64,000 nucleotides of DNA from contig CAWJTK010000014.1 in NCBI GenBank assembly GCA_963845785.1, positions 100-64,099 on the forward strand. Direction: 5' to 3'. Below the pieces are notes generated by a model. It had not been told where the DNA came from. It did not search any database and saw only the letters and a list, made by a program, of their open reading frames with translations. Made by a program: the position numbers and the translations under genes. Position 1 is the first letter of the stretch. Every line of letters begins with the position of its first letter. Positions 3,001 through 61,848 of the stretch are shown here, piece by piece. This stretch comes from Terriglobia bacterium. GTDB taxonomy: Bacteria; Acidobacteriota; Terriglobia; Bryobacterales; Bryobacteraceae.

Positions 3001-3496
3001 AAGCCCGGGGCAGGGGAACAGCCAGCAGGCAGGCTCGCAGTCTCCGAACGGCGGCGGCGGTGGCGTGAATAACAGCGCACGCGGCGGTTACGGCGGGAAT
3101 TACGGAGGCTACGTTGATCGGCCATACGGCGGCACCTATGGCGATCCCCGGATGGGTGCGTTGCCACCGAACTACTCGCCCGAAGTGGCGTATAACGACA
3201 TCATGCGCGACATCGGCCGCTTGCGCGCTCAGGTGGGCGACGATAAGGATCTGGCGCGAGAGCTCCAGGATCTCGTTCAAAAAGCCCAGCAGCTCGATCC
3301 CCGGCACATGACGAACGAGGGCCAGTTGGCGGCGATCGTCGGCGCACAGGCGATGTCGGAGGTTGACGAGGTCGAACTCGTTCTGCGACGCAAGCTGCAG
3401 GCGACCGATGGAAGCGTGCGCAGCACGAACCCGCGCAACACGCCTCCTGGATACGCGGACTCAGTCGCGGAATACTACAAGCGGCTGAGCCAGTAG
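1..3496 (+). CDS. Large membrane-anchored Gln/Gly-rich low-complexity protein, 5' end open at the window edge (DUF4175-like architecture, unverified)
   Basis: The frame of the 119..3496 ORF is open from base 2 with no stop, so the GTG at 119 is probably internal. It has one TM helix (FIRFASIAAAAASVLVYLMFW), a beta-rich region of about 350 aa, two Gly10-11 tracts (nt about 1235-1264 and 1640-1672), and long GQQGQQ/SQQQ repeats with coiled-coil-like Q/E/K/R stretches. Confidence 0.75.
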   Translation, partial: AQEVEQRHPGFDQRLLTFTERSRDNAADPFLPLLAEDALVIARDAEPEHVIAKGRFIRFASIAAAAASVLVYLMFWGPGVFGYGTSLLWGSYSKDQPLKPFYSISVKPGSKTIRRNSDQTITATVSGFSTSHASVWVQYASASKWEEAPMEPQSGSSGFAFLLPRVPEDVQYYVEAGGIKSSTFKLHTIDLPAVKNIRVTYNYPSWTGEAAVTEDPGGDLRAVQGTVAKVEIQTDKALSNAQLVFDDGKPINLDSTQNNRTTTNVPIEKDGMYHIAVMDHGELVRLTDDYFIEARKPGTPSVRITKPGKDAKVSPIEEVGIEVNAEDDYPLQEVSLHYSVNGAPEKVTSLLKDKGSKKIDGSMLMSLEDFKLVPGDIVSLYATAKDGKNSAKTDMFFIQAVPFEFEYTQGSGGGGGGGGGGADQDQQISEREKEIIAATFNQVNGDAKAKAAAAENGKYLSEVQAKLRDQAQSLANRTKARQLDGSGAGFAQFVKEMELAVASMSPASDKLKSLGFQDALTPEQQALQHLLRAENTFRQIQVQVSRGGGGGGGGGGGAGRDLANLFDLELDKDKNQYETNASSSAEQKQQEVDETLKKLADLARRQQQLAEQQQNNPQQLAQQRYQQEMLRREAEELKRQMESLQRGDQGQQGQQGQQSQQQGQQSQGQSSGQGQQSASSSGGQQGQQQQSQSQQQAGLSRQMKNQLDQAIKDLAQAEKDMSNSASARQPGQQNGAQGQSDAQRAAEGLKRAQQNLQSGLKQQNGSEIGNIANKAEQLATQQQDFEQRLRRNFGQSEGNQQTAQQMADEKHRMIDQYNQMQKDMQQAARNIAGTQPGVSKDLRDATGRMQQEEIGTRMEVTEEALRRGYGQLAVMREAPVTQYLNELKDQMRKLEAESAAQGTAGGAEDKGQIATQQALNQAEKIRQGMQQLARSRQQQQGQQNGQGQQQGNKGSQPGQGQQGQQGQPGQQGQQAQQGQGQQPGQGQGPQQGQGQQGQGQSPGQGNSQQAGSQSPNGGGGGVNNSARGGYGGNYGGYVDRPYGGTYGDPRMGALPPNYSPEVAYNDIMRDIGRLRAQVGDDKDLARELQDLVQKAQQLDPRHMTNEGQLAAIVGAQAMSEVDEVELVLRRKLQATDGSVRSTNPRNTPPGYADSVAEYYKRLSQ

Positions 3497-3503
3497 TAAC
3501 GGC

Positions 3504-3572
3504 CTTACCAGCGGTCTGTAGGGCAGGCGATCTTGTCGCCGGCCGTCACCCGAACCGCCTCTTCGACGGAGC
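3504..3572. repeat. Copy A of the structured hairpin-repeat family (core GGCGA-TCTTG-TCGCC at 3526-3542)
   Basis: It aligns by eye to 51365-37 of the era insert (TTAC.CCAG..GGTAG.GC.GGCGATCTTGTCGCCGG..GTC.C.CG.ACCGC.TC.TC..CGGAGC). It lies directly after the stop codon of the large gene. Confidence 0.6.
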
Positions 3573-7883: not shown

Positions 7884-7896
7884 GATCCGGTAACAC

Positions 7897-7913
7897 GGCG
7901 ATCTTGTCGCCGG
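7897..7913. repeat. Copy B of the hairpin core (GGCGA-TCTTG-TCGCCGG), between convergent genes
   Basis: It matches the core of the other copies exactly. It sits 14 nt after the stop at 7883 and 9 nt before the stop at 7922, so it may act as a bidirectional terminator-like hairpin. Confidence 0.6.
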
Positions 7914-7921
7914 TGGCTTTG

Positions 7922-9043
7922 TTACTGCGTATCGCCGCCGGTTTCTTCGACGAACCGTCCGACGTGAACCTGATAAATCGCCGGTTTGCCATGCCGGTCG
8001 CTCACAAAAAGAACGCTCTGGCTGTCCGGTGAGAATACCGGCCGCACCATAGCGGGGTCGGAAGCCCGGTGTTCGCAGAGAGTCAGCTCGCGCCTCGCTA
8101 CGCGCACCAGAATCAGCACATATTCCGAAGCCAGGCTGCGGCTCGCCCCCGTGAACACCGAAGCGTCGCCGTTGGGCGAAACCGAAGCGAACTGGCTCGT
8201 TTTCGCGATCAGGGCGTCCGTCCCGTCGTCCGGAGAATGCTCCCGAAGCGTGACCAGCTCTTTCGGATCTTCCGGCACATGCAGGTAGATGAACGTGCGC
8301 CCCGAAGGGATCCAGAGCGGCGAGGCGGAGCGGCCTGGGGCGGTCTTGAGTTGCCGCTTGCCGGAACCGTCGGCGTTCACGAGCCAGAAACGGTCTGCGG
8401 CGCGATAGAGAATCTGCGAGCGGCGCGGCCGTGCCATCACCTCTCCGATTTCCTGGTCGGTTTCGACAACGCGCCGGGTCTGCTGGCGCAGCGCGCTGAC
8501 GATTCTCGATCCTCCGTTCTCGCGTTCGGCGAAAATGGCGGCTCCGTCAGTCCCGACCGAAAATCCGGAGCGCGTGGCGCCCGCCGGAACCGAGTGAAGT
8601 TGCCGTGTTCGTTCGGTGGCAAGCGTGCCTTCCATGAGGGCTCCGCCGTCGAAAAACAGAAAGCTGCGTTCGTCGGGCGCCAGGGAAAGTGTGGACGGGT
8701 CGAGCGCGCTGACTTCGGTCAGCTGTTTTGAGCCGCCGTTGCGCAGGTCGAACAGAAAAGCCTGTCGTGAACCGGGTGCCTCGCCGGAATCGCGCTCGCT
8801 CCAGTAGAGCAGCATGTCGGAGCGGCGCGTAAACTGCCGCAGATGCATCGCGGTCATGCCGCTCGTAAAGGCGGGATCGGTTAGCCGGACAACTTCGAGT
8901 TCAGTCGCCGGATCCGGGTACCGGCGCCACTCCGGGCTCGACACGCTGCCCACCGCCGCCATAGCAAGCCGGCCGCCGGCCGTAAGGGCAAAAAAGCCGC
9001 GGCGCGATAGGATCGGCGGGACCAAGTAGTCTATTCTAGGCAT
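7922..9043 (-). CDS. TolB/PD40-like beta-propeller protein (oligogalacturonate-lyase-like fold), probably exported
   Basis: The likely start is MPRIDYLVPPILSRRGFFALTAG (Tat-like signal) at 9043. Supporting motifs are WRRYPDPATELEVVRLTDP and a C-terminal FSPDSQSVLFVSDRHGKPAIYQV PD40-type motif. The start overlaps the miaA stop by 8 nt. Confidence 0.65.
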   Translation of the reverse strand: MPRIDYLVPPILSRRGFFALTAGGRLAMAAVGSVSSPEWRRYPDPATELEVVRLTDPAFTSGMTAMHLRQFTRRSDMLLYWSERDSGEAPGSRQAFLFDLRNGGSKQLTEVSALDPSTLSLAPDERSFLFFDGGALMEGTLATERTRQLHSVPAGATRSGFSVGTDGAAIFAERENGGSRIVSALRQQTRRVVETDQEIGEVMARPRRSQILYRAADRFWLVNADGSGKRQLKTAPGRSASPLWIPSGRTFIYLHVPEDPKELVTLREHSPDDGTDALIAKTSQFASVSPNGDASVFTGASRSLASEYVLILVRVARRELTLCEHRASDPAMVRPVFSPDSQSVLFVSDRHGKPAIYQVHVGRFVEETGGDTQ

Positions 9044-17142: not shown

Positions 17143-18033
17143 TTGAAGCAAAATTATTTTATTGTTGTTCTGGCGCATTCATTCCACGGGCGCTTGCAGC
17201 GTGTTCACATTCCGCACCGGTTCGTATACGGAGCGCTGGCGGGTTTCGGCGTGGCGATTTTATTGCTGTGCAGCGTCGTGGGCAGTTATGCCCGAATGGC
17301 TTCGAAGGTTTCGAACTACAATTCACTGCAACACGAAGCGCAGCTGCTGCGCGAGCGCTATGACAATCTGCAATTGAAGGTCAAACAGACCAACGAACAG
17401 CTCGCGAGTCTGGAATCGCTGGCCGACGAGGTGAGCATCGCCTACGGAGTCAAGAAACAAGTCGCCGGCTCTTCGGACCTGGTCGACGAGGCGCCGCTCG
17501 TGCCGACCATGCGCGATACCCTTGCGGAATACAGCTACCTTCGCACCACGAACCTTGCGGACCGCCAGCGAAACATCTTTATGCGCGGAGACATGAACGT
17601 GCTGCCCAGCGTCTGGCCCATCAATGGGCGCCTGATGGGCGGATTTGGAGTTCGCCTGGACCCGTTTTCCGGGGAAGGCGCGATGCATACGGGTATCGAC
17701 ATCTCTGCTCCGTACGGTACTCCGGTTCACGCGACCGCGGATGGAATTGTCATTCACGCGGGTTGGAACGGCGGCTACGGGCGATGTGTGATTATCGATC
17801 ACGGCAACAATTATCAGACCTGGTACGCGCATCTCTCCCGAATGGATGTAATAGAAGGCCAGGAGATCCGCCAGGGCGAAGTGCTTGGGGCGGTCGGCAG
17901 TACCGGGCGTTCTACCGGGTCGCATCTTCACTATGAGGTTCGCATTGCTTCCACGCCGGTAAATCCGTACCGATTTCTCGGGCGTACGAATTTTGCGGCA
18001 AAGGCTTCTCCGGTCAGCGAATTTCCTTTCTGA
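17143..18033 (+). CDS. M23 family metallopeptidase
   Basis: It carries HTGIDISAPYGTPVHATADG...GYGRCVIIDHGNNYQTWYAHLS...GSTGRSTGSHLHYEVR, with an N-terminal TM anchor and coiled coil. Confidence 0.9.
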   Translation: MKQNYFIVVLAHSFHGRLQRVHIPHRFVYGALAGFGVAILLLCSVVGSYARMASKVSNYNSLQHEAQLLRERYDNLQLKVKQTNEQLASLESLADEVSIAYGVKKQVAGSSDLVDEAPLVPTMRDTLAEYSYLRTTNLADRQRNIFMRGDMNVLPSVWPINGRLMGGFGVRLDPFSGEGAMHTGIDISAPYGTPVHATADGIVIHAGWNGGYGRCVIIDHGNNYQTWYAHLSRMDVIEGQEIRQGEVLGAVGSTGRSTGSHLHYEVRIASTPVNPYRFLGRTNFAAKASPVSEFPF

Positions 18034-18114
18034 AGCAGATCGCCTGGCGACTGCACACGCTGGCTGACGTAAAGCTCCGCCCCACGAAGGCTGGCTCGGA
18101 AGAGCCCGTTCGCT

Positions 18115-24218: not shown

Positions 24219-24523
24219 CGGGGGCTTTTTACGGGCGAACCTGGACGGGGTGAACCAACGGAGCCCTTAGCCTCGACGCATTAAGGGTCTCAATCGCAGC
24301 GAGTTGAGGACGGGCGACTGTGACCGGGGTGGTTCCCGACGAACAGGCTGCCCTGAACCGAGTAACGCGTTTCTCTGCGATGTCCCAGGTCATATGAGAG
24401 TCCAGGAAACCTGGCCCCGCCAGCTTTCTACGCCGGCCTCGCGCCCGGGGAAATCGACGGTCTCGATCAGGGTTTCGCGATCAACGTGGGCCGTCGTCTG
24501 AAGCTTCCTGCGGCAGAGGGACA

Positions 24524-24628
24524 CCGGCGACAAGATCGCCGGCGCTACCAGCACCATTGAAAAACCGCCCTGAAGTGACCGAAAAACTACGCGCCGAGCT
24601 GGGGCTCGGCGGCAGGCCTGCCCCACGA
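24524..24628. repeat. Copy C of the structured repeat (inverted relative to the era copy), with both hairpins
   Basis: It has CCGGCGACAAGATCGCCGGCGCTACC, then about 40 nt, then the hairpin GCCGAGC-TGGG-GCTCGGC (24593-24610), then GGCAGGCCTGCCCCAC. This matches the reverse complement of 51310-51407. Confidence 0.6.
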
Positions 24629-24746: not shown

Positions 24747-25748
24747 CTAATTCTCGCTCGGCATCTTTTCCACGTAGTCGACGATGAATTGATCCACCAT
24801 TGCTTTGCGGGACTCCAGCTTCAAGCCCATCGATTGCACGGCGTCCGTTACTGACGAACCTCCGCCGCCGGGATCCGGCGCGATCTGTATTCCCGCGCCC
24901 GCGCCGCCCGGCGCAGCCATCGGAATATTCGCGCCCGCCGCTCTCGCCAGCGCGATTATTTCCGCCAGCGAGATTTCGAGGGATGCATCGTAGTTGCCTT
25001 TGATGCCGGTCATGTCCACAATTTGCCGTCCCCGCTGCGCCGCCGCCCAATTAGCGTCATCAGTTGAGTCATCATATCGGCAAAGCCAGGCATCGTCGTC
25101 ATGCGTGAAATCTATATGCATCGATTGCGTGGCGGGGTTCAGCTTGTAGGACATTTTGCCCTTAAGTCCCATATCGACTACCGAACTGCCGGTCGAAAGA
25201 TCGACTTTGCGCGCACTGGTCCCTCCGGACCATCCATCTTCATCTCGCCTGGTTTGAGGGGCGCGCTCTCATCGATGGCAACCGGCTTGTTCGGCGAAGC
25301 CTTCAGTTTCGGACCACCCTTACCCATCACCAGCGCCAACACGGGATGTTCCGCACTGGCGCGATGCGCCATCAGATTAAAGCGATCTTCGAGAAGCGAT
25401 TGCAGCATTTTCGGCGCGTCATCTTTCGTCGAGCCCTGCGGCATTTTGGCTACGATATCGAAACGCGTCGTGGCCATCCAGTCGGGCCCGGTGATCTGGT
25501 AAGGCTTCACGCCGTAGGCATACTCAAGAGGGTCTTCAGATCCAGGTAACGGTATTCGGCTCTGCCGGACCCGATATCCGCTCCAAAGGGCATCTTTCCA
25601 CCGCCTCGCAGCGCCGCCAGCATTTTGGCCTGATCCATGGGCTGGGCGGGTTTGATTGTGGCCACTTCGAAGGATGGCTTTGTCTGCGCGAAGGCCCAAC
25701 GGCCGTAAGAGCCAGGCAGATCGCGAGTTCCCGGAACGTTTGCCGCAT
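24747..25748 (-). pseudogene. TIGR03435-family paralog broken by three frameshifts
   Basis: The pieces lie in three frames: MRQTFRELAICLALTAVG | AFAQTKPSFEVATIKPAQP...YRYLDLKTLL | EYAYGVKPYQITGPDWMATTRFDIVAKMP...GPVRAK | VDLSTGSSVVDMGLKGK...IVDMTGIKGNYDASL...FIVDYVEKMPSEN. The joins are near 25695, 25526 and 25200. Confidence 0.8.
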
Positions 25749-25879: not shown

Positions 25880-25898
25880 CCGGAGACAAGATCGCCGG
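25880..25898. repeat. Copy D of the hairpin core (CCGGAGA-CAAGA-TCGCCGG, one stem mismatch)
   Basis: Read directly, in the intergenic region between the TIGR03435 pseudogene and the PAS kinase. Confidence 0.5.
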
Positions 25899-25973
25899 CG
25901 CCGCAGGGCGGTGTACCATCGTTCACCAAACAAGCGTCGCATGTGAAATCCATTCCATTTTGGCCGCGAAAGC

Positions 25974-43505: not shown

Positions 43506-44720
43506 ATGGCAAATCTTTCAAAGCCGGGTATTGAGCGCATGCATCGGGTCTTGTCGGGGCATATCCAGAGCGGGGAAGCTTCCAGGCCTCGTCGCGCTGG
43601 TGAGCCATCGCGATGACGTTCACGTGGAAGCGCTCGGCGCCATGTCATTCCCGAGCGAGTCGTGTATGAGCCCGCCTCCCATGAAACGTGATTCGATCTT
43701 TCGCATCGCTTCGATCACAAAGATCGTCACTGCCGTTGCGGCGATGATCCTGGTTGAGGACTGCAACCTGCGGCTTGACGATCCCATCGACCCGTGGCTG
43801 CCGGAACTTGCGAATCGCCGCGTGCTCAAATCCCTTTCGTCGGAGATCGACGACACCGTTCCTGCATCGCGGGCCATCACGGTTCGCGATCTGCTGACGT
43901 ACCGGATGGGCTTCGGAAGCGTGATGGCGCCCCCAGGCATCTGGCCCATTCAGAAACTGATTCGCGAGTATCACATCGGCGGCGACAGTCCGATGTTGCC
44001 GTCGCAGGCGCCAGCCATGGACGAATGGCTGCGCAGGTTGGGATCGCTGCCGCTGCTGGCGCAACCGGGCGAGCGGTGGATGTATCACGTAAGCGGCGAC
44101 GTGTTGGGCGCACTGATCGCGCGAGTCCCCGGGCAATCTCTCGGAGCATTCATGCGCGAGCGCATCTTCGAGCCGCTTGGCATGAAGGACGCCGCGTTCC
44201 ATGTTCCTCCCGAGAAAATCGATCGCCTGCCTGCGCTTTACTTTTTCAATCGTGAGACGAACAAGCTGGACCTCTTTGAAGACCCCGCAAACAGCGACTG
44301 GCTTCCGAGCCGCCTTTTGAGTCCGGCGGAGGCGGCCTTGTTTCGACGGTCGACGACTACTTTGCCTTCAGCCGTATGATGCTGGACAAGGGCCGATACG
44401 GCCGTGAGCAGATTCTCTCTCGGGCGACAGTTGAACTCATGACGTCGGATCAACTCACCTCTCAGCAGCGGGTGGGTTCAGAAATCTTCTTCGGCACCCA
44501 TTCCAGTTGGGGGTTGGGAATGGCCGTGGATGTCGGGCGCGGTGAAATTTTCCAGACCCCGGGCCGGTATGGCTGGACGGGCGGCTTCGGCACAACTGCC
44601 TATGTCGATCCCGCGAAAGAATTAATCGGCATCCTCTTTACCCAGCGCATGATGGATTCACCGCAGCCGCCGAAGGTATTCGGCGACTTCTGGACCCTGG
44701 CGTACGCCGCAATAACGTGA
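43506..44720 (+). pseudogene. Beta-lactamase-family serine hydrolase, paralog 1, with two frameshifts
   Basis: The pieces are MANLSKPGIERMHRVLSGHIQSG | KLPGLVALVSHRDDVHVEALG...FRIASITK (SxxK)...DPANSDW | ASEPPFESGGGGLVSTVDDYFAFSRMMLDKG... The joins are at 43572-43578 (+1 in a G run) and 44300-44301 (-1 in a G run). Confidence 0.82.
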
Positions 44721-45558: not shown

Positions 45559-46797
45559 ATGGCAGGTCTTACCAAATCGCGCCTGGAGCAAATGCGTTGG
45601 GTGTTGTCGGGGTACGTCGAACGCAAGGATCTGCCGGGGCTGGTTGCGTTAGTGAGCCACCATGACGAGGTCCATGTGGAGGCGCTCGGAACCATGTCAT
45701 TTACGAAGACGACCGCGGGCGCTCCGGCGCCCATGAAGCCCGGCGCCCCCGCGCCTATGAAGGCGGATACCATCTTCCGCATCGCCTCGCTCACGAAACC
45801 CATCGCCGCGGTTGCCGCGATGATTCTCATTGAAGAGTGCAAGCTGCGGCTCGACGATCCGATCGACCCCTGGCTGCCGGAACTCGCAAACCGCCGCGTG
45901 CTCAAATCCCTTTCCTCCGATCTCGATGACACCGTCGAGGCCGTGCGCGCTATTACCGTTCGGGACCTTCTGACCTACCGCATGGGATTCGGCAGTGTGA
46001 TGGCGAAACCCGATACTTATCCGATCCAGCGATGGATTCGCGACTATCGCCTGGGTGGAGACACTCCGGTTTTACCATGGGAAGCGCCGCCCATTGGTGA
46101 ATGGCTGCGCAATCTCGGCTCACTGCCTTTGCTCGATCAGCCCGGCTCACGATGGAGGTATCACACAAGCGGAGATGTTCTGGGGGCGCTGATCGAGCGC
46201 GTCTCGGGAAGATCGTTCGGCGCCTTCCTGCGCGAGCGCATTTTCGATCCGCTCGCTATGAAGGATACCGGCTTCCATGTTCCACGTGAAGACCTCGACC
46301 GCTTATCCGGACTCTACTTCTTCAATCGCGGCACGAACAAACTGAATATGCTTGACGACGCCTCTGGTAGCGCGTGGGCGTCCAGACCGACATTCGAATC
46401 GGGCGGCGCGGGGCTGGTCTCGACGATAGACGATTACTTCACCTTCAGCCGCATGATGCTTCACAAAGGGCGCCACGGCAGCAAGCAGATCATTTCGAGA
46501 GCAAGCGTCGAACTGATGACATCGGATCATCTGACTCCCGAGCAACGCGCCGGCTCTGAAATTTTCTTCGGCGCGCATTCGAGTTGGGGCTTCGGAGTAG
46601 CGGTCGACATCCGGCGCGCTGAGATCTTCCACACCCCTGGCCGATTTGGCTGGACCGGCAGTTTTGGTACAACCGCCTACACCGACCCCGCGGAAGGAAT
46701 GATCGGGATCCTGTTTACGCAACGCATGATGGATTCGCCTGAGCCCCCCAAAATATTCACCGACTTCTGGACTCTTGCGTACGGCGCGATGGAGTAA
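45559..46797 (+). CDS. Beta-lactamase-family serine hydrolase, paralog 2 (intact)
   Basis: It starts MAGLTKSRLEQMRWVLSGYVERKDLPGLVALVSHHDEVHVEALG and has the FRIASLTK SxxK motif. By eye it is about 75% identical to paralog 1. It contains an imperfect 24-bp tandem duplication (GAPAPMKP/GAPAPMKA, 45718-45765). Confidence 0.85.
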   Translation: MAGLTKSRLEQMRWVLSGYVERKDLPGLVALVSHHDEVHVEALGTMSFTKTTAGAPAPMKPGAPAPMKADTIFRIASLTKPIAAVAAMILIEECKLRLDDPIDPWLPELANRRVLKSLSSDLDDTVEAVRAITVRDLLTYRMGFGSVMAKPDTYPIQRWIRDYRLGGDTPVLPWEAPPIGEWLRNLGSLPLLDQPGSRWRYHTSGDVLGALIERVSGRSFGAFLRERIFDPLAMKDTGFHVPREDLDRLSGLYFFNRGTNKLNMLDDASGSAWASRPTFESGGAGLVSTIDDYFTFSRMMLHKGRHGSKQIISRASVELMTSDHLTPEQRAGSEIFFGAHSSWGFGVAVDIRRAEIFHTPGRFGWTGSFGTTAYTDPAEGMIGILFTQRMMDSPEPPKIFTDFWTLAYGAME

Positions 46798-48096: not shown

Positions 48097-49209
48097 ATGA
48101 AAGCCACAGTACAGGTCAGCCGCGGTATTGAGAGCCTTTTCGGCACGCGCGACGAGAATATCCGTTTGCTCGAAACCGGTTTGAGCGTTCACACGAGGTT
48201 AAGCGACGACTGCATTGAAATCGAGGGCGAACCCGAAGCCGTATCTCGTGCCGAGCAGATTCTTGCGGATTACTTCGCGCTCGTCCGCGAAGGCGTCGTC
48301 TTCAAGAACGGCGATCTCAACAGCCTTCTGCGCGTGGTGACAGCCGATCCCGAGGTCACCCTGCGTTCGCTTTTCAAGAGCGGGCAACAGCGCAGTTTCG
48401 GCAAAAAAGTTCTCGCGCCCAAGACGGTTACCCAGCGCCGCTATCTCGAAGCGATCGAGCGCAACGATCTCGTTTTCGGCATCGGCCCGGCGGGTACCGG
48501 CAAGACCTACCTTGCCGTCGCCATGGCGATTCAGGCGCTCATTAGCAAGCGCGTGTCCCGCATCATTCTGACCCGTCCGGCCGTCGAAGCGGGTGAAAAA
48601 CTCGGCTTTCTGCCCGGCAGTCTGCAGGAAAAAATCGATCCGTACCTGCGGCCTCTCTACGACGCGCTTTACGACATGCTCGAATCCGACAAGGTGGAAA
48701 AGCTGCTCGAACGCGCCTCGATCGAAGTCGCGCCGCTCGCCTTCATGCGCGGCCGCACGCTCAACGACAGCTTCATCATTCTCGACGAAGCGCAGAACAG
48801 CACCTCCGAGCAGATGAAGATGGTGCTCACGCGCCAGGGCTTCAACTCAAAAATGGTCGTGACCGGGGACATCACGCAGATCGATCTTCCCAACGGCCGG
48901 CGCTCCGGCCTGCTCGACGCGGTCGAGATCCTGAAGGGCGTCGAAGGCATTTCATTCGTCCAGTTCGACGAGCGGGACGTGGTTCGGCATAGTCTCGTCC
49001 AGCGCATCGTGCGCGCTTACGAGAAATACAACGAGGGAATCGCCGGACGGCAGCTCTCGCTCAGACTCTCCGATGGAACTCCGCTCGAAGCTGCCGCGGA
49101 ACAAACCCGCGCGGAGCAAACCCGGGCGGAACAAACCAACGCGGAACAAATCCCCGCGGAACAAATCCCCGCGGAACAAACGAGCCCGGAACCCGTTCAG
49201 GCGGCATAA
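48097..49209 (+). CDS. phoH: PhoH family ATPase (YbeZ-like) with repeat-bearing C-terminal tail
   Basis: It has Walker [13 protein letters not shown], plus [18 protein letters not shown] and IILDEAQN. The tail is [30 protein letters not shown]. Confidence 0.9.
49096..49185 (+). repeat. In-frame 15-bp tandem array x6 (GCGGAACAAAYCNNN, encoding AEQ[T/I][R/N/P/S]) in the phoH 3' end
   Basis: The units start at 49096, 49111, 49126, 49141, 49156 and 49171. Units 4 and 5 are identical. Confidence 0.85.
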
Positions 49210-49227
49210 TCGCCTGACCGGCAGAAA

Positions 49228-49686: not shown

Positions 49687-50956
49687 TCATCGCCGCCATC
49701 ATCATACTGCTCGTGCTGGTGACGTTGTTCACCGCGATCCAGACGCTTTACCTCGAAGGCATGCGGCTGCGCACCCGCGATCTCCCTCACTGCAGTACTT
49801 CAAGTCCACCCTGGAACCACGCCTGAATCTTCGCTCCGAAGAAGGCGCGCTCACGTTTTCCCTTTGGAAGCACACCTCTCTTGTCGTTTTCGGCATACTT
49901 GTGCTGGCCGAGGTAATTGACGGAGGCCCTCTTTCACTCCCGGAGCTGCTGGAGAGCATGGCCGTCGCGTGGCTCCTGATGATCCTTGCCGCTTATCTGA
50001 TTCCCCAATTGCTCTTTCGCCGGACCTCCTGCCACTGGCTCACGGCGCTCCTGCCGTTTTATTCCGGAGCCTCTCTGGTCGCGCGGCCGCTCGTACTTGC
50101 CTTCGGCTTCATTCACTCCCTGCTCGATATCACGACGCCGGAAGAGAAGCGCGACGAACCCGCGACCTCGGCGGAAAACATCGAAGCCCTGATCACCGCC
50201 GGTACCGAAGAGGGGCTGATAGAGGAAGACGACCGCAAGCTGATTCAGTCCGTAGTCGCGTTCGGCGATAAAGTTGTGCGCGAAGTCATGACGCCGCGCC
50301 CGAACATGGTTGCGATTCAGGCCGACGAATCGCTCGAAGCCCTTCGGGAACTCGTGGTCAACGAACAGTATTCGCGCATCCCCGTCTTCCAGACCTCGAT
50401 TGACGACGTGATCGGCTTCGTTCATGTGCGCGACATGTTCGAAGTCCCGGAGAGCGATCGCCTCACGCGCACGGTGCGCGAGCTGATGCGGCCCATCCGG
50501 TTCGTCCCCGAAACCAAGCCCGTCAACGATCTGATGCGCGAGATGCAGCAGGAAGGCGCGCACATGGTGATCGTGGTCGACGAATATGGCAACACCGCGG
50601 GCCTCGCCACCATGGAAGATCTGGTCGAAGTGATTCTGGGCGAGATTCGCGACGAGCACGAACCGGGTTCTGACGTCACCGAAGATGGTCATGGGGGCTA
50701 CATCGTCTCCGGCAATTTCGACATCGCGCGGATACGCGATATGCTCGATTTCAAACCCGAGGAAGAGATCGAATCGACGACCATCGGGGGTCTCGTGACC
50801 GAATGGCTGGGCCGCGTTCCTTCGCCGGGGGAAAGCGTGGTGCGCGACGGCATACGCGTCGAAGTTCTGGCGAGCGACGAGATGCGCGTGGAACAGGTGC
50901 GCCTGAGCAAAGCCGAGCCGGTGGAAAAAGAGGAACAGGCTGTGAACAAAACATGA
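49683..50956 (+). pseudogene. Hemolysin-family / CorC-type protein (DUF21 TM + CBS pair + CorC_HlyC), with a -1 frameshift near the 5' end
   Basis: The ATG at 49683 gives MIIAAIIILLVLVTLFTAIQTLYLEGMRLRTRDLP. The frame then switches at the C run 49784-49786 to SLQYFKSTLEPRLN... The rest is intact (MTPRPNMVAIQ, CBS, EDLVEVILGEIRDEH). Confidence 0.82.
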
Positions 50957-52013
50957 CCCCTAAAAAATTCGTATCCGGCTTCGTCTCCATTCTCGGCCGC
51001 CCCAACGCCGGCAAATCGACGTTGTTAAATGCGCTCGTGGGGCAAAAGGTCGTCCATCGTGGCGGACAAGCCGCAGACCACGCGCACCGCCATTCAGGGC
51101 GTTCTGACGACGGCTGAAGCGCAGGTGATATTCATCGATACGCCGGGCATTCACAAATCCGACAGCGCCATCAATAAACGCATGATGGACGCCGTGCGCG
51201 CGTCGCTCGAAGAGCGCGATCTGTTCATCTACGTGGTCGATGCCGCCAAACCCTTCGGCGAAGGCGACGAAAAAGCGCTAAGCATCCTCCGCCGTGATCG
51301 TAAGCAGAGCAGCCTATGTGGGGCCAGGGCTTCCGGCCTGCCGCCGAGCTTCCGCTCGGCGCGGAGCTTTACGCCAGTACCGGTAGCGCCGGCGATCTTG
51401 TCGCCGGTAGTCGCACGGACCGCGTCATCAGCGGAGCGACCGCACCCCCGTAATTTTCGCCCTGAACAAAATCGACGCCCTGGCCGCCAAACACGAAATG
51501 CTGCCGCTGCTCGAGGAATACCGGAAGCGCTACGATTTCGACGCATACTTGCCGATCTCGGCCGCAACCGGCGAAGGGCTCGACGAACTGCGCGACGAAG
51601 TCATCCGCCGCCTGCCCGAAGGGCCCGAATATTTTCCCCGCGACCACTACACCGACCAGCCCGCGCGCTTCCTCGCCGCCGAATTGATCCGCGAAAAAAT
51701 CCTGCACGCCACCCGCCAGGAAGTGCCGCACTCGGTCACCGTCCTGATCGAAAAGTGGGAAGAACTGCCGCGCCTGATCCGCATCTTCGCCACCATCCTG
51801 GTGGAGCGTGAGGCCAGAAGGCCATCATCATCGGCTCGAAAGGCGCAATGCTCAAGCAAATCGGCACTCAGGCGCGGCGAAGAAATGGAAGCTTTGTTCG
51901 ATACGCACATCTATCTCGACCTGCACGTGAAGGTGGAAAACGACTGGCGCGAGAAGGCCGCGTATCTCAATGCGCTCGATTGGCGTACAATGGCCGGAAG
52001 AGATGAAACATAA
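50953..52013 (+). pseudogene. era: GTPase Era, disrupted by a 142-bp repeat insertion plus three indels
   Basis: It has G1 [16 protein letters not shown], then [16 protein letters not shown], and a KH-domain end VHLDLHVKVENDW-like. Frame changes occur at 51049-51055 (+1), 51301-51442 (insert), about 51812 (-1) and about 51880 (+1). The start overlaps the corC stop (ATGA). Confidence 0.85.
51301..51442. mobile_element. Copy E: 142-bp structured repeat (REP/BIME- or RPE-like) inserted in era
   Basis: It has two hairpins, GCCGAGC-TTCC-GCTCGGC (51343-51360) and CCGGCGA-TCTTG-TCGCCGG (51389-51407). It is flanked by GATCG / GACCG. Deleting 51301-51442 gives ...ILRRDRTPVIFALNKID... in frame. Confidence 0.6.
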
Positions 52014-52301
52014 GCGGATATTCCTTCCCGTCGTACTGTTTTTTACTGTTCCTCGCCGCGACTTCTGCAGCAAGCAAACCCGTTTCCGACGATTTTCTGG
52101 TCGACACCATCCGTCAAAAACTGGCTGCGGACCAGGTCGTGAAAGGCGGCGCCATCGAAGTCGACGTCAAGGATGGCGCCGTAGTTCTCAAAGGCAAAGT
52201 CGAAGAAGAGAAGCAGAAGAGCAAGGCTGAGAAGATCGCGAAAAGAGTCAAGCGGCGTGAAGAGCGTCGACAACGAGTATCCAGATCGCTCGCACCCCTG
52301 A
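52003..52301 (+). pseudogene. BON domain protein (small secreted/periplasmic), with two +1 frameshifts
   Basis: The pieces are MKHKRIFLPVVLFF | LFLAATSAASKPVSDDFLVDTIRQKLAADQVVKGGAIEVDVKDGAVVLKGKVEEEKQKSKAEKIAKRVK | GVKSVDNE... The joins are at the T6 run at about 52041-52046 and at about 52253. Confidence 0.7.
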
Positions 52302-52305
52302 TCCG

Positions 52306-53154
52306 TATGCTCTTCGTTGCAGGATACTCCCGGCAGTTACGAAGCTGAAAAGATCGCGAGCAACCTGCAGTTCGTCGACGGCCTCGCGTGGTCTCGCTCG
52401 GGATTTCTGGCCGTCGGCCGACGTCCGGCAACGCAAGATTTACAAGCTCGACTTCGTCGCCGCATCCCGAAGTCCTGCGGGAAGACAACGATGGCGGCGC
52501 CTCCGGACTGGCCTACGATCTCGCAGGGCCGTTTGTACATCTGCGAATCGGAAGCCCGCCAGCGTCACGCGCCTCGATCAGAACGGCGAAATCGAGACGC
52601 TCGCCGCAGGATTATCAGGGAAAGAAATTCAATTCGCCGAACGATATTGTGGTTCGCAGAGACGGGCACGTCTATTTCACCGATCCGGCCTTCGGCAGCG
52701 CGAACGATCACCGCGAACTCGATTTCTACGGCGTCTGGCACATCGCGCCGAAGGCGATCATCGAAGTGGTGGCGAAGTGGCAGACGCGCCCCAACGGCAT
52801 CGCGCTTTCGGCCGATGGCAAGCTGCTTTACGTGACCGATTCCGACCGTCACGCCGTCGTCGCCTTCGATCTCGATCGCAATGGCGCAGGCTGCGAACCA
52901 GCGCGATTTCGTCAAAAACATCGCGGGCGTTCCCGGCGGCATCAGGACCGATGTGGAGGGCCGCCTCTACGTGGCCGCGAAGGGCGTTGCGATATATTCG
53001 CCGAAGGGCAGACTGCAGCGCACGCTATCTCGAACCGAGTACACGCTCGAACTGCGCGTTCGGCGAAGGCGACCTCGAATCGCTCTTCATGTCGTCGCGC
53101 GCGGCAAGTGTCTTCGGAGTGAAGATCGGCGTCAAGGGAGCGTTGCAGTATTAG
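52306..53154 (+). pseudogene. SMP-30/gluconolactonase/LRE family protein, with at least 7 successive +1 frameshifts
   Basis: The reconstructed protein reads EKIASNLQFVDGLAW...ADVRQRKIYKLD...EVLREDNDGGASGLAYD|SQGRLYICESEAR|RVTRLDQNGEIETLA|YQGKKFNSPNDIVVRRDGHVYFTDPAFG...PNGIALSADGKLLYVTDS...|VPGGIRTDVEGRLYVAAKGVAIYSPKG|CAFGEGDLESLFMSS. The frame cycles 0,1,2,0,1,2,0,1. Confidence 0.78.
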
Positions 53155-53581
53155 CCGCCGCTATCCCGGAACGGCCCATCCTCGGCGTGGGCGCGCTCAT
53201 CATCGAAGGCGACCGGATCCTGCTCGTCGAGCGCGGCCGCGAACCCCTGAAAGGCTGGTGGTCGCTGCCGGGCGGCGTTGTCGAAACCGGCGAGACGGCT
53301 CGAAGAGGCGCTGCGCCGCGAAGTGCGCGAAGAGACCGGCCTCGAAGTCGAGATCCTCGGCCTGCTCGAAATCTTCGAGCGCATCATGCGCGATGACAGC
53401 GGGCAGCCCGGAATATCACTACGTGCTGATGGATTACCTGTGCCGCCCCGCGGGCGGAACTCTGCTGCGCGGCGGACGATGCGAGCCGGGTCGCATGGGT
53501 CGCGGAGCCGGAACTGCGGAGCTCTGCAGATCACCGAAGGCACTCCCGGCCGTGATCGCGAAGGCTTTTCGCGGAAACTAG
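53151..53581 (+). pseudogene. NUDIX hydrolase, with five successive +1 frameshifts
   Basis: The Nudix box is split across frames: GWWSLPGGVVETGE | LEEALRREVREETGLEV. It continues EYHYVLMDYLCRPAGG | DDASRVAWVAEPEL | LQITEGTP | AVIAKAFRGN. The start codon is uncertain. Confidence 0.72.
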
Positions 53582-56019
53582 TGAGTGTGAAGTTCACCAG
53601 CGCTGAAGCGCTCGAGTGGGAGCAGGTCCGTGCCCTCGTTGCCCGCTATATCGGCAGCCCGCTGGGAGCCGCTGAGCTGGCGAAGCTCGAGCCCGGCGAC
53701 GACCGCGAAAGCTTGCAGCGCGATCTCGCCGAAGCCGGCGAAGCGATCCACTACATTCGCGCTCGGCACTCCGCGCCCGCAGCCGGAACGGTGCGCGAGC
53801 CGGCAGCAGCGCGATCCGGATCAATCTCAACGGTCTGCCCGACATCACCGTCACGATTCAGAAACTGCACATCGAAGGCGCGGCGCTCGAACCGCGCGAA
53901 ATCTTCGATCTGATCGCGTTCCTCGATCGCGCCGCCGACGCCGCATCGTTTCTCGCTGCCGCTCGCCGAACGATTCCCGCTGCTCGGCGAAACGCGCGCG
54001 GCGGCATCGGCGATTTCCGGCCGCTGCTCAAGGAAGTCGAGGGCAAGATTCAGGCGGACGGAACCGTTCTCGACAGCGCCAGCCCGCATCTCCATCGTCT
54101 CCGCCGCGAGATCGAGAAGCAGAAGAAGGGCATTCAGGAATCGCTCGAACGCTTCCTCCGCGCCAATCGCAACGAAGGCGTGTTGCAGGAAGAGTACATC
54201 ACCATTCGCAACGAGCGTTACGTGGTGCCGGTGATCTCCGGGCAGCGCCGCAAACTGCCCGGCGTGATTCACGGCGCGAGCTCCACCGGTCAGACGCTGT
54301 TCCTCGAGCCTCTCGAAACCATCGACCTCAACAACGAACTCGTGCGTCTCCAGGAAGAAGAGATCGCGCGAAGTGTTTCGCATCCTGCGCGAGCTGACCG
54401 GGCGCCTCCGCGTCTACGGCGACGCCGATTCGCGCCGCGGCCCAGGTGATGGCGACGCTCGATCTGATTTTCGCGAAGGCAAGATTCGCAGCGGATTTCG
54501 ACTGCGTGCATTCCGGTCTTCGGCGAACGCTTGCATCTCGAAAACGCCCGCCATCCGCTGCTGATCGACGTCTTGCGCAAAAGCCGCAAACGCGTCGTTC
54601 CCTTTGCGCTGACTCTCGATCGCGAACTGCCGCACGCTCCTGATCAGCGGCCCGAACACCGGCGGCAAGACCGTAACGCTGAAGACCGTCGGCGTGATCG
54701 CGCTGATGGCGCAGGCCGGTCTTCCGGTTCCGTGCTCCGCCGCCGAACTTCCGCTCTTCGAACAGGTGCTGGCCGATATCGGCGATAACCAGTCGATCGA
54801 GCAGAATCTCAGCACCTTCTCCGCGCATGTGTCGCGACTCCGCGAAATGGCTCTCGATGTCACGCCCGATTCACTCGTGCTGCTCGATGAAATCGGCTCC
54901 GCCACCGATCCCGAGGAGGGCGGGGCGTTGGGCGTCGCGCTGGTCGATCACTTTCGCGCGGCGGGCGCGTTCACGCTCGCCTCCACGCACCTCACGGCGC
55001 TCAAGATCTACGGCGCGAATACAAAGACGGTGCTGAACGCGTCCATGGGCTTCGACGAGCAAACGCTGGAGCCCACTTATCAGCTGCAGATCGGACTGCC
55101 AGGCAAATCCGCCGGTCTCGATATCGCGGCGCGGCTTGGCATGCCCGAAGACATCATGAAGCGAGCGCGTGCATCCCTGAGCACGCAGGAGATCGAGCTT
55201 TCGACGCTCATCGCCAACCTGCACAAGCGCATGGCGCAAACCGGCGCCCTCGAAGCGTCGCTCGAGCGGGAGCGAGCCGCGCTGGTGGAGCGAGAGAAGC
55301 AGATCGTCCAGGAGTGGGAGCGGAAAGAAACAGCTAAGTTGCGCGAACTGGAAAGCCGCTTCGATGAGATGCAAAGTCGCTGGCAAGAGCGGGGCGATGA
55401 AACGCTCTCGCGCATTTCCGAAACCGCGGAACGCCGCAAGGCAGTCGACGAAGCGCACCGCCAGACCGCCCGCGTCAAACGCGAGATGCGCGAAGACTGG
55501 GAGAAGATCGTCCCGCAACCGAACCATACCGCAACCGTCTCGCGCTTCAAAATCGCAGAGGGAACGCGGGTCCGGCTGAAAGGCATCCGCGAGCCCGCCC
55601 GTGTACGCCGAATACTCAGCGACGGCAAGTTCGAAGTGGAAGCCGGGTTCATGAAGATGCAGGTTTCGACAGGCGACATCGAAGAGGTGCTGCCCGATAT
55701 CGTTGGTCCTGTTTCAACGAAGCCGAAACTGCCGAAGAATGTGCGCTATCAATCCGGTCCCGAACTAAGCCCATCGGTCCAGGAAATCAACGTGATCGGC
55801 GAGCGCGAAGCGGAAGCAGTCGAGCGGGTCGAGCGTTTTCTCGACTCAGCCGTCATGGCCACCGCCGCGCGCGTCCGCATCGTACACGGCCACGGTATGG
55901 GCATCCTCAAACGCGCGATCCAGGAAGTGCTGAAGAACAGCCCCCACGTCGAGAAGTTCTATCCGGCGTCCCAGTTTGAGGGCGGCGCGGGCGCCACCAT
56001 AGCCGAACTAAAGGACTAA
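53581..56019 (+). pseudogene. mutS2: Endonuclease MutS2 (MutS domain V ATPase + Smr), with multiple frameshifts in the first 1.06 kb
   Basis: From about 54640 the gene is intact: LLISGPNTGGKTVTLKTVG, LLDEIGSATDPEEG, and the C-terminal Smr domain VRIVHGHGMGILKRAI. The upstream pieces (LEWEQVRALV, INLNGLPDITV, LAERFPLLGE, DSASPHLHRLRREI, NERYVVPV, EVFRILRELTG, MATLDLIFAKARFA, LENARHPLL) lie in alternating frames. Confidence 0.85.
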
Positions 56020-56056
56020 AAAAGCGACCAGCGGGATTGTGGGGCGACCCCCGGTA

Positions 56057-61664: not shown

Positions 61665-61724
61665 GTTGGGGGGCAGGACTTCCTCCCTGTCGCCGAACTT
61701 TACGTCAGTGCCGGTAGCGCCGGC
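61665..61724. repeat. Copy F: degenerate partial copy of the structured repeat
   Basis: GTTGGGGGGCAGGACTTCCTCCCTGTCGCCGAACTTTACGTCAGTGCCGGTAGCGCCGGC aligns by eye to 51317-51394 of the era insert. It lacks the second hairpin arm. Confidence 0.5.
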
Positions 61725-61848
61725 ATTCGTGAAAACCACGTCTTCGACAAAGCGTTTGCCAGTGTTATTTCGTGACGAGTCCTAAGATATCGCGGCGAAA
61801 AGACTCTCCAGTAAAACGCGAAACCGGCGTCATCGCGCCCGAAAGCAC

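Follow-up and report, generated by a model that had tools for sequence, protein, structure and literature searches.

The essential GTPase gene era looks broken at this locus: how did a structured repeat come to lie inside it, and is the gene still functional? In the window (the whole 64,000-nt stretch of DNA that was analyzed), Era can be followed in one frame up to ...ILRRDR and then in another from ...PVIFALNKIDALAAKHEMLPLLEEY, as the original prediction had described. Its core idea, a REP/BIME-like repeat (RPE-like in behavior) within the era coding region and with relatives in intergenic DNA, holds. We consider it highly probable that a REP/BIME-type mosaic repeat inserted once into era and is read through in frame, and that the frameshift in the window comes from assembly errors. 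The locus would then show, in a clean and datable case, how a selfish repeat of REP type has been absorbed by a GTPase that is essential and universally conserved.

Structure of the element

Three hairpins (21, 18 and 19 nt), a linker and a tail make up the element (Table 1), and their order is repeated in at least nine copies. The two perfect 7-bp-stem hairpins of the original prediction, here hairpins 2 and 3, were both found. Hairpin 1 is a third, absent from that account. A covariance model matches the era copy over 51317–51412 with 114 bits. Across copies, 90.7% of hairpin cells are base paired, compared to 31–54% in slid controls, and three hairpin pairs stay paired despite changes on both sides. 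Hairpin 1 shows compensatory changes, with CAGGGC/GCCCTG, CAAGGC/GCCTTG (L136) and CAGCGC/GCGCTG (L167) as alternative stems. In hairpin 2, which is identical in the three era carriers, an A–U pair is swapped for G–C in three copies. Gaps in the raw alignment of the 12 copies kept RNAalifold from detecting hairpin 1, and this hairpin was scored by hand. Single-strand folds of the element have z values of -2.2 to -4.0.

Hairpins 1 and 3 are REP-type units. The foot of hairpin 1 lies directly at the stem and is GTGG in the era copies and L040, and GTAG in L136 and L167. The foot of hairpin 3 lies 2 nt from the stem and is GTAG in long copies and GTAA in many short units. Hairpin 3 is also solitary in many Bryobacterales and Solibacteraceae genomes, and forms closely spaced inverted doublets in the relatives L092, L028 and L043. 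The motif C[CG]GAGC occurs three times in the element, and two of the three sense frames are open. The mosaic is also visible at the peptide level in spurious ORFs, which hold the further modules SRDREG and FHGPRRAAKGDEDTAQP.

The window, L001 and L040 copies have internal hairpins only and no terminal inverted repeats. The GATCG/GACCG pair proposed as a target duplication does not stand: its right copy was created by a private deletion, L001 reads GACAACG at this point and L002 differs again. A terminator in the era copy was also considered and rejected, as this copy has no terminator-like site on the sense strand.

Table 1. Coordinates of era, the repeat element, its parts and its extragenic copies in the window
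Feature	Position	Strand	Basis or remark
era (GTPase Era)	50953..52013	+	Translation in three frames; orthologue with five private 1-nt indels, otherwise intact
Private 1-nt indel sites in era	~51051 (+1), ~51308 (-1), 51445-51449 (-1), ~51811 (-1), ~51877 (+1)		
Expanded loop-coding segment of era	51296..51449	+	Orthologue comparison; mapping to 1EGA
Repeat element proper	51309..51438	+	GCAGCC... to ...GCGGAGCG; part recognizable in extragenic copies; 12-copy alignment
Hairpin 1 with 5' GTGG foot	foot 51318-51321, stem-loop 51322-51342	+	REP-type unit
Hairpin 2, GCCGAGC-TTCC-GCTCGGC	51343..51360	+	Perfect 7-bp stem
Linker GCGGAGCTTTACG(C/T)CAG	51361..51377	+	Nearly invariant columns in copy alignments
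Hairpin 3 with GTAG foot, CCGGCGA-TCTTG-TCGCCGG	foot 51383-51386, stem-loop 51389-51407	+	Perfect 7-bp stem
Tail module (...GACCGCGTCATCAGCGGAGCG)	51408..51438	+	Counterpart of 'NRVFDRA' module in extragenic copies
Extragenic unit, hairpin 3 and tail	3514..3572	+	Core match and covariance model
Extragenic unit, hairpin 3 and tail	7896..7950	+	Directly past stop of ORF, last sense codon ending 7880
Extragenic degenerate composite copy	18031..18114	-	Between convergent genes; covariance model 20 bits
Extragenic composite copy	24519..24627	-	3' of minus-strand gene ending at 24750; covariance model 38 bits
Extragenic unit, hairpin 3 only, one mismatch	25880..25907	-	Core match and covariance model
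Extragenic composite copy without hairpin 2	61666..61767	+	Covariance model 35 bits

Copies outside era

The 17-nt hairpin core occurs six times in the window at up to two mismatches, against 0.1 expected by chance. With the covariance model the 64-kb window holds seven family members; the six besides the era copy are all extragenic, which bears out the claim that the same sequence family is intergenic elsewhere in the window. Four of these six lie just 3' of a same-strand ORF. The first unit in the table, for example, begins 18 nt past the TAG stop (3494–3496) that closes a long ORF, its last sense codon ending at 3493. The second is missing at the orthologous site in L005, with flanks too diverged for exact junctions. 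An empty-site comparison at 61.7 kb with L003 was uninformative, as homology ends at ~61850.

The many further copies expected of a repeat exist in other genomes as well, again extragenic. Full-length ones were found in L040, L073, L101, L136, L147, L167 and L004, and none of these seven is spanned by a long ORF. A genome-collection scan with the 17-nt core found family copies in Bryobacterales, SbA3 and Terriglobia loci among the matches listed, which are mostly chance matches from GC-rich genomes. In a metagenome scan with the linker, only L136, L147 and L167 are family members; the rest are mostly chance matches because AELYVS is a common peptide. A peptide census of the three open frames returned 82 spurious short ORFs without Pfam domains that read the element in three different frames. 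This census missed the known positives P0001 and P0002 and is thus no evidence that era is the sole decorated gene.

A search for a RAYT/TnpA-Y1 transposase with an E. coli RAYT sequence as query gave no tblastn matches in ~1.2 Mb of scattered loci, which is a weak test. In SbA3, two stretches with REP units on either side code for an esterase, an ECF sigma factor and a GNAT acetyltransferase, and for no transposase.

The insert in Era

Three other assemblies (P0001/L001, P0203 and P0002/L002) carry the same element at the same era codon, in frame, and their intact Era proteins have 41–48 extra residues. In the GTPase domain, the insert replaces a 2–3 residue turn that leads from helix alpha3 to strand beta5 (the NKxD strand). 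On E. coli Era (1EGA) it maps between residues 114 and 117, where the turn has only 2–3 residues, in agreement with the short spacing before the NKxD motif noted in the original prediction. The insert-free orthologue L005 has TEDF at this position. After two 1-nt deletions are corrected, the loop segment of the window reads approximately DRKQxQPMWGQGFRPAAELPLGAELYASTGSAGDLVAGSRTDRVISGATAPP; QPMGGQGFGPAAELPLGAELHVSAGSAGDPVAR is a peptide to be expected from carriers such as P0001. The equivalent residues of P0001, 115–162, have a pLDDT of ~29 and no predicted secondary structure, so the insert probably forms a disordered surface loop.

The insert appears to be translated. In L002 part of its tail has been deleted without loss of frame, a change to be expected only of a translated segment. 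Among carriers, era codon positions 1 and 2 are 96–100% identical and position 3 is 69–76% identical, upstream and downstream of the insert alike; in the carriers, strong purifying selection acts on Era to either side of it. Of the four explanations offered at the outset, only the one in which the element is tolerated and in frame in the real genome survives, in agreement with the intact ORFs and the selection. The alpha3–beta5 turn of Era is a permissive site for large insertions.

History of the insertion

In a neighbor-joining tree, the window and its relatives branch as (window,(L002,(L001,(L003,L004)))), where the nodes have bootstrap support of 200, 199 and 188 in 200 replicates. The carriers are paraphyletic, which points to one old insertion. 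Judging from this phylogeny, the element entered era once, long ago, in the ancestor of a Bryobacteraceae-like (Acidobacteriota) group of soil species. A very recent event, as had been suggested, is contradicted by the tree and by the sharing of the element across species that are 11–13% diverged. The nested L003/L004/L007 lineage has an unrelated Pro-rich sequence at the insert site, which may be a remodelled remnant or a second independent insertion. The right junction GGAGCGA[C/T]AACGCCCCC is common to the L003/L004/L007 insert and L001/L007, and a 26-nt SRDREG-type motif of that insert matches an intergenic site in L001. A single insertion would have been kept in frame through several speciation events, and the nested lineage would then have remodelled it.

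We propose the following course of events. A mosaic palindromic repeat whose usual place is extragenic DNA, frequently the 3' untranslated end of a gene, would have been mobilized, presumably by a RAYT-type HUH tyrosine transposase. In the ancestor of the species group one copy would have inserted into the alpha3–beta5 turn of era and landed in one of the element's two open sense frames. Era would then be made with an extra loop of 41–48 residues, probably disordered, and stay functional. Comparisons of empty with filled sites gave no clean junctions, so this mode of insertion and the precise ends of the element are provisional.

Conservation of the hairpins

From hairpin 1 through the linker of the era insert, three species agree at 21 of 23 third-codon positions. 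The highest value among 277 flanking windows in era is 18, and the same species differ at 24–31% of third positions elsewhere in the gene. Either selection on the structure of the nucleic acid or gene conversion by other copies may have produced this pattern. The strong nucleotide conservation of hairpins within an ORF is a testable handle on which of the two keeps orthologous REP copies alike.

If the cause is selection, the array may have a dual use, kept as a nucleic-acid signal while it encodes a tolerated loop. The signal could act in mRNA processing, stability or translation pausing in the phoH-ybeY-corC-era operon, or the array could be a still-active REP substrate. The same 70–100 nt would then serve as loop codons and as a structured signal, and the fact that synonymous-type positions are the best conserved of the whole gene in three species would be explained. 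The orientation of extragenic copies, sense at gene 3' ends like transcribed REPs (PMC3733652), also fits. However, gene conversion from other genomic copies would yield the same pattern, and the three era copies show no compensatory change relative to one another. In L001 and L002 the decay of hairpin 3 has already begun, and the nested L003/L004 lineage lost the hairpins but kept era. We regard dual use as unlikely.

We also considered a protein module that is specific to the lineage and under selection for its amino acid sequence, in which case the similarity of the insert to extragenic DNA would be secondary. Retention of an insert in every descendant lineage, with loss in none, favors such a module, but the pattern of change does not. 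Differences in the hairpin part are evenly spread over codon positions 1, 2 and 3 (5, 2 and 4; 4, 3 and 3; 6, 3 and 5), and it is the third positions that are best conserved. The tail is poorly conserved within era: it diverges freely, has indels and is partly deleted in L002. The insert is predicted to be disordered, and the nested L003/L004/L007 lineage has replaced it with its unrelated Pro-rich sequence. The original prediction had named a homologous insert of about 47 aa, conserved as protein, as evidence against a repeat; orthologues do have the insert, but it is conserved as nucleotides and not as protein. We find a selected protein module very improbable.

Reading frame of era in the window

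On the preferred reading, a repeat that is read through in frame, the frameshift in the window comes from single-base assembly errors. Indels were called from a DNA alignment of the window with six orthologous era genes; the encoded Era is 84–90% identical in amino acid sequence to proteins P0001–P0006. Five 1-nt indels are private to the window, including a C-run (51445–51449) that is C5 in the window and C6 in relatives. Two of the five bracket the insert, so the true insert would be ~144 nt and in frame. The +1 frameshift reported across the insert is therefore not real, and the boundaries 51301–51442 are an artifact of the indel errors. Exact excision of this segment does restore the frame by arithmetic, but this is a coincidence.

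Taken at face value, the four to five frame breaks would make era a true pseudogene that the inserted repeat and further frameshifts have inactivated. Frame switches are also present in the neighbors corC, BON, SGL, NUDIX and mutS2, which points to assembly noise; the larger of these (CorC, BON and MutS2) have 76–93% amino acid identity to their orthologues. The era indels are private to the window while codon positions 1 and 2 are 96–98% identical to orthologues, which is not a pattern of decay, and carriers with clean assemblies have intact ORFs. We give a pseudogene very little credence. From comparison with relatives, and not from reads, we conclude that the private indels are single-base assembly or sequencing errors. 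This removes a false alarm: an essential gene is not disrupted, and its frameshift appears to be assembly noise shared with neighboring genes.

Era could also be made without the insert if the segment were taken out of the RNA or skipped in translation, by an intron-like process, bypass or programmed frameshift. The segment is strongly structured and its excision restores the frame of the raw window sequence, but in relatives the insert is in frame and stop-free, so that removal is unnecessary, and the tail deletion in L002 preserves the frame. At ~140 nt the segment is far below the size of group I or group II introns. Self-splicing introns and other described structured RNAs were rejected for want of a curated Rfam family match: a scan of the entire window at gathering thresholds gave 0 matches and a permissive scan of 51200–51550 gave 0 at E≤1. 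Removal at the RNA level, raised in the original prediction, is hardly credible.

An assembly chimera mis-joined at the repeat, also raised there, has next to no chance: repeats are classic mis-assembly sites and this assembly is visibly noisy, but left and right junctions are identical in four independent assemblies (ENA/NCBI, JGI) and synteny (phoH-ybeY-corC-era-BON-SGL-NUDIX-mutS2) is preserved to the left and right of the insert.

Comparison with known systems

MITEs (ERIC and others) include intragenic in-frame copies (Delihas 2007, cited in PMC10969869). The era element resembles them as a small non-autonomous repeat able to create in-frame fusions. The MITE class was rejected because the element has neither terminal inverted repeats (criterion ~15–30 bp) nor a target-site duplication.

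Solibacter usitatus has ~600 copies of class 3 TnpA-Y1-associated hairpins with a CnGA foot (PMC6006769). It belongs to the same order or neighborhood, and its hairpins likewise form a REP-like family of high copy number. The GT[AG]G foot of the era element sets it apart by description, though C[CG]GAGC recurs in it. REPIN/RAYT systems (Bertels and Rainey 2011, PMC3116915) share the inverted doublets, seen in relatives for hairpin 3, and persistence across species. Unlike REPINs, neither the era copy nor the long copies form inverted doublets, and no RAYT was identified in the ~1.2 Mb of loci searched.

REPs are defined by a GT[AG]G foot and a hairpin (PMC6006769, PMC3733652), and the element matches this definition. 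Like GTAG-type REPs and BIMEs, it has short, GC-rich imperfect palindromes (~20–40 nt) that form hairpins, with a 5' GT[AG]G foot on hairpins 1 and 3, set in a fixed mosaic with other conserved motifs. Its many copies, in the 64 kb and the sampled loci, are dispersed and mostly extragenic, tend to lie 3' of ORFs and between convergent genes, and occasionally insert into genes with the frame preserved. It differs from GTAG-type REPs in the hairpin-3 foot, often GTAA and 2 nt off the stem, and in that no RAYT has so far been linked to the family. E. coli BIMEs alternate two REP types in inverted orientation, whereas the two REP-type units of the era element are in direct orientation, with both feet on the same strand. 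Our literature search found no description of a mosaic repeat family in Bryobacterales, of which this is a first outline, and no report of an intragenic REP in era, in Bryobacterales or conserved across species.

Rickettsia palindromic elements (RPEs) are ~100–150 bp and lie in frame in housekeeping genes that remain functional (PMC10969869, PMC3733652). The era element behaves alike: a palindromic repeat inserted in frame adds a peptide at a fold-compatible position, and the host protein is retained and keeps its function. The likeness is one of behavior only, and common descent is not expected, as the host is an acidobacterium; the phylum is different and the sequence family presumably unrelated. 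Many Rickettsia genes are decorated by RPEs, whereas in the family described here only era has been seen so far, and the family is otherwise a typical extragenic, 3'-UTR-associated REP. Intragenic REP clusters that encode 43–82 aa have been published (Di Nocera et al. 2013, PMC3733652; Quentin et al. 2018, PMC6006769). REPs and RPEs that lie in frame within genes are thus on record already, and the era element adds one more of that sort.

Reading frame of era

In the window sequence as given, the Era frame goes to ...ALSILRRDR and resumes in a different frame at ...PVIFALNKIDALAAKHEMLPLLEEY, with about 142 nt between the two parts. The gene order phoH-ybeY-corC-era-BON-SGL-NUDIX-mutS2 is identical in every related contig fetched. 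We aligned the era DNA of the window to six orthologous genes (L001, L002, L003, L004, L005 and L007). The era frame changes four to five times, not once, each time at a single-base indel that none of these orthologues shares. The +1 frameshift of the original prediction is of this kind: two private indels lie at the insert's two edges, so that the true insert is about 144 nt and in frame. Exact excision of 51301-51442 does restore the frame, but by coincidence, since -2 and +1 shift the frame alike (modulo 3). Nor is GATCG/GACCG a target-site duplication, because its right-hand member was created by a private deletion and is absent in relatives (GACAACG in L001, different again in L002).

Compared with L004 proteins, the window switches frame once in corC, four to five times in era, once in BON, at least three times in SGL, at least once in NUDIX and at least twice in mutS2. 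Gene decay is an unlikely cause, as the larger genes (CorC, Era, BON, MutS2) retain 76-93% amino-acid identity despite the switches. Judged from sequence, the pattern across neighbouring genes is that of an indel-prone assembly, which looks like unpolished long-read data and calls for caution with any frame-based inference from the window. Single-base indels occur about once per 500 bp across 49700-56020, breaking all six of these genes.

Era, the element and its relatives (window coordinates unless a locus is named; R1, covariance model of the family)
Feature	Location	Strand	Detail
era	50953-52013	+	translation
Private era indel	about 51051		+1
Private era indel	about 51308		-1; at insert edge
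Private era indel	C-run 51445-51449		-1; five C versus six in relatives; at insert edge
Private era indel	about 51811		-1
Private era indel	about 51877		+1
Era copy of element	window era		114 bits (R1)
Composite copy	24519-24627	-	R1
Composite copy	61666-61767	+	R1
Composite copy	18031-18114	-	R1
Short units	3514-3542, 7896-7912, 25880-25907		R1
Different Pro-rich insert, same era codon	L003:10340-10518, L004:10340-10431, L007:606-772		contains CAATTTCCGAGCCGCGACCGGGAGGGAGCG units, ends ...SRDREGA
5' end of element			GCAGCC remnant of upstream module
Hairpin 1 (hp1)			foot GTGG/GTAG; GTGG-GGCCAGGGC-TTCG-GCCCTGCC
Hairpin 2 (hp2)			GCCGAGC-TTCC-GCTCGGC
Linker between hp2 and hp3			GCGGAGCTTTACGTCAG
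Hairpin 3 (hp3)			foot GTAG/GTAA; GTAG-CG-CCGGCGA-TCTTG-TCGCCGG
Tail			...ACCGCGTCTTCGACGGAGCG

Translation of the element

A search with the reconstructed Era showed that the five closest relatives exceed ordinary Era in length (327-356 versus about 300-310 aa). The extra residues that an orthologue alignment was proposed to reveal are there: P0001 (353 aa) and P0002 (346 aa), the Era proteins of L001 and L002, contain ...RRDRKQTQPMGGQGFGPAAELPLGAELHVSAGSAGDPVARDPANRVISGATTPPVIFALNK..., which is the window's other frame across the element (QPMWGQGFRPAAELPLGAELYASTGSAGDLVAGSRTDRVISGATAPP), and P0203, from a separate JGI assembly, also has the element in Era. Four independent assemblies thus have the element at one and the same codon of era, and in the three clean ones the ORF is intact. 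On both sides of the insert, codon positions 1 and 2 are 96-100% identical among carriers and position 3 just 69-76%, so the whole of Era, also beyond the insert, is under purifying selection and must be translated through the element. L002 has a frame-preserving deletion within the insert tail. Among the explanations first offered, an element tolerated in frame is therefore the correct one.

The AlphaFold2 model of P0001 (67-sequence alignment, mean pLDDT 68.8) has the Era fold, with residues 115-162 lacking secondary structure (pLDDT about 29) between helix 103-112 and strand 167-172. Judged from Ras-like GTPases in general, this alpha3-beta5 turn would lie where the strand begins (its N-terminus), not at the nucleotide-binding end. 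The short spacing attributed to E. coli Era is borne out by a 2-3 residue turn at the insert site in solved Era structures; in 1EGA (E. coli Era), matched stretches stop at residue 114 and restart at 117, between helix ...DEMVLNKLRE and strand PVILAVNKVD, which holds the NKxD motif. The same loop is variable in the wider family; elsewhere among the Bryobacteraceae, Era is extended there by 4-25 unrelated residues.

Structure and conservation of the hairpins

The anatomy of the element (Table) was derived from two alignments of its copies, A2 and A4. Both predicted perfect 7-bp-stem hairpins are present, at 51343-51360 and 51389-51407. Across three helices, 90.7% of cells pair, versus 31-54% with slid partners. 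Three pairs stay paired through two-sided changes: G-C to A-U and to C-G in hp1, and A-U to G-C in three copies in hp2. Single-strand folds return all three hairpins (z -2.2 to -4.0). Rfam gave no match for the element, even at E<=1, and no terminal inverted repeats were found in it. The heptamer CCGGTAG flanks hp3 on both sides in direct orientation (window 51380-51410; L040:3491-3523), giving the stem a GTAG foot on its 5' side as well as on its 3' side.

The hp1-hp2-linker part is 91% identical between three carriers (63/69), and the insert tail merely 43-69%. Third codon positions of the hairpin part match at 21-22 of 23, versus 71-74% in the rest of era (binomial P 0.004-0.04 for third positions, below 4e-4 for all positions). 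As an empirical control, a 23-codon window was moved across the remainder of era; the insert's three-way third-position identity of 21/23 was not reached in any of 277 flanking windows (mean 13.8, maximum 18). Differences in the hairpin part are spread evenly across codon positions. It is thus the nucleotide sequence of this stretch, not its peptide, that is conserved. Selection on the hairpins and gene conversion from other copies both fit. Over 53 nt, the window's era copy and an extragenic L004 copy share 98% identity; the era copies of the three carriers show no compensatory changes among themselves, and hp3 is already decaying in L001 and L002. Of all features, only this nucleotide-level conservation of hairpins within an essential ORF might merit further study.

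Distribution of the family

R1 finds seven family members in the window. The 17-nt core GGCGATCTTGTCGCCGG occurs 6 times there at <=2 mismatches (0.1 expected). As predicted, the family recurs between genes: all six non-era members are extragenic, four of them immediately 3' of a same-strand ORF. Near-full-length copies occur in further genomes and metagenomes, at three loci of Terriglobia MAG MFD06714.bin.2.104 (L040, L073 and L101) and in L004, L136, L147 and L167, and none is spanned by a long ORF. Lone hp3 units (GGTAACGCCGGCGATCTTGTCGCCGGT) are common across Bryobacterales, Solibacteraceae SbA3 and Terriglobia MAGs, and some form inverted doublets.

A protein-database search with the element's three open frames returned 82 clusters of hypothetical proteins of 50-159 aa without Pfam domains. 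These are spurious ORFs that run through the element in two frames of the sense strand and one of the antisense strand. They contain further modules, in the order SRDREG(V/A), FHGPRRAAKGDEDTAQP, VWGQGF...DLVAG and NRVFDRAF, which makes the family a larger mosaic and the era copy a 5'-truncated piece.

With its GTAA/GTAG foot, an hp3 unit can provide or adjoin the stop codon of the gene upstream (L044:5205-5233, Solibacteraceae SbA3; L113:3936-3964); in L044 an ECF sigma factor ORF ends ...CTC CGG TAA, the TAA belonging to GGTAACGCC. What looks like a distant relative, GTAG-GGGCGGA-TTCCATA-TCCGCCC with the identical linker after it, lies at L129:7737-7792 and L143:690-745 in non-soil metagenomes, one a human-gut contig, and matches R1 weakly (about 20 bits).

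The window holds other repeats. At the phoH 3' end, directly upstream of ybeY (49080-49214), a 15-nt unit (CGCGGAACAAACCCG and variants) is repeated in tandem about 7-9 times, which would give PhoH a C-terminal pentapeptide repeat. A large ORF ending at 3493 contains long low-complexity coding repeats rich in Gln and Gly (CAGGGCCAGCAA...) at 1826-3027. Two adjacent copies of about 2 kb (43671-44599 and 45747-46676; 73-75% identity) are, from synteny with L001 (3191-5855), tandem beta-lactamase-family paralogues.

History of the insertion

A neighbour-joining tree built on the ybeY-mutS2 region (5,441 ungapped sites) gave (L005,(window,(L002,(L001,(L003,L004))))), its bootstrap values being 200, 199 and 188 of 200 replicates; L005 is an insert-free era orthologue. 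The three carriers are thus paraphyletic, with L003 and L004 nested among them, as is L007 from its insert type. These three have Pro-rich inserts at the same codon, ending ...QFPSRDREGA, and L007 has the right junction GGAGCGA(C/T)AACGCCCCC in common with L001. The simplest history would be one insertion predating the divergence of the species (11-13% at the DNA level), then remodelling in the L003/L004/L007 sub-lineage. The 26-nt SRDREG-type motif of L003 and L004 is also intergenic at L001:4432-4459 and is a module of the mosaic (SRDREGV-FHGP... adjoins the element in spurious ORFs), so the same loop seems to have been remodelled by another mosaic module, which may have come in with a second insertion or through gene conversion. 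No descendant lineage has lost the insert.

Comparison with known repeats

The original observation is partly confirmed and its interpretation partly supported; the frameshift, target-site duplication and exact excision are artefacts. Canonical REPs are defined by a 5' GT[AG]G foot adjoining a hairpin and lie 3' of ORFs and between convergent genes (PMC6006769, PMC3733652). The element likewise has a palindrome and a GT[AG]G foot, and its extragenic copies are dispersed and lie at gene 3' ends. A search for a RAYT gene, covering about 1.2 Mb of scattered loci with an E. coli RAYT query, gave no hit. Its fixed mosaic build is BIME-like, although the REP units run in direct orientation and do not alternate. 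It behaves like the RPEs, the classic case of in-frame intragenic repeats (PMC10969869), but is not an RPE. The reading as a REP/BIME- or RPE-like element in a coding region holds. For Solibacter usitatus, REP-like hairpins numbering about 600 copies have been reported as one family (PMC6006769); compared by description only, its foot is CnGA, versus GT[AG]G here. Our literature search found no description of this element family or of a decorated Era. REPs also occur within tnpA_REP genes (PMC6006769), and in-frame intragenic REPs are documented in Opitutus terrae, Thauera, Rickettsia conorii and others, where clusters encode 43-82 aa (PMC3733652). The era element is a further case of this known phenomenon.
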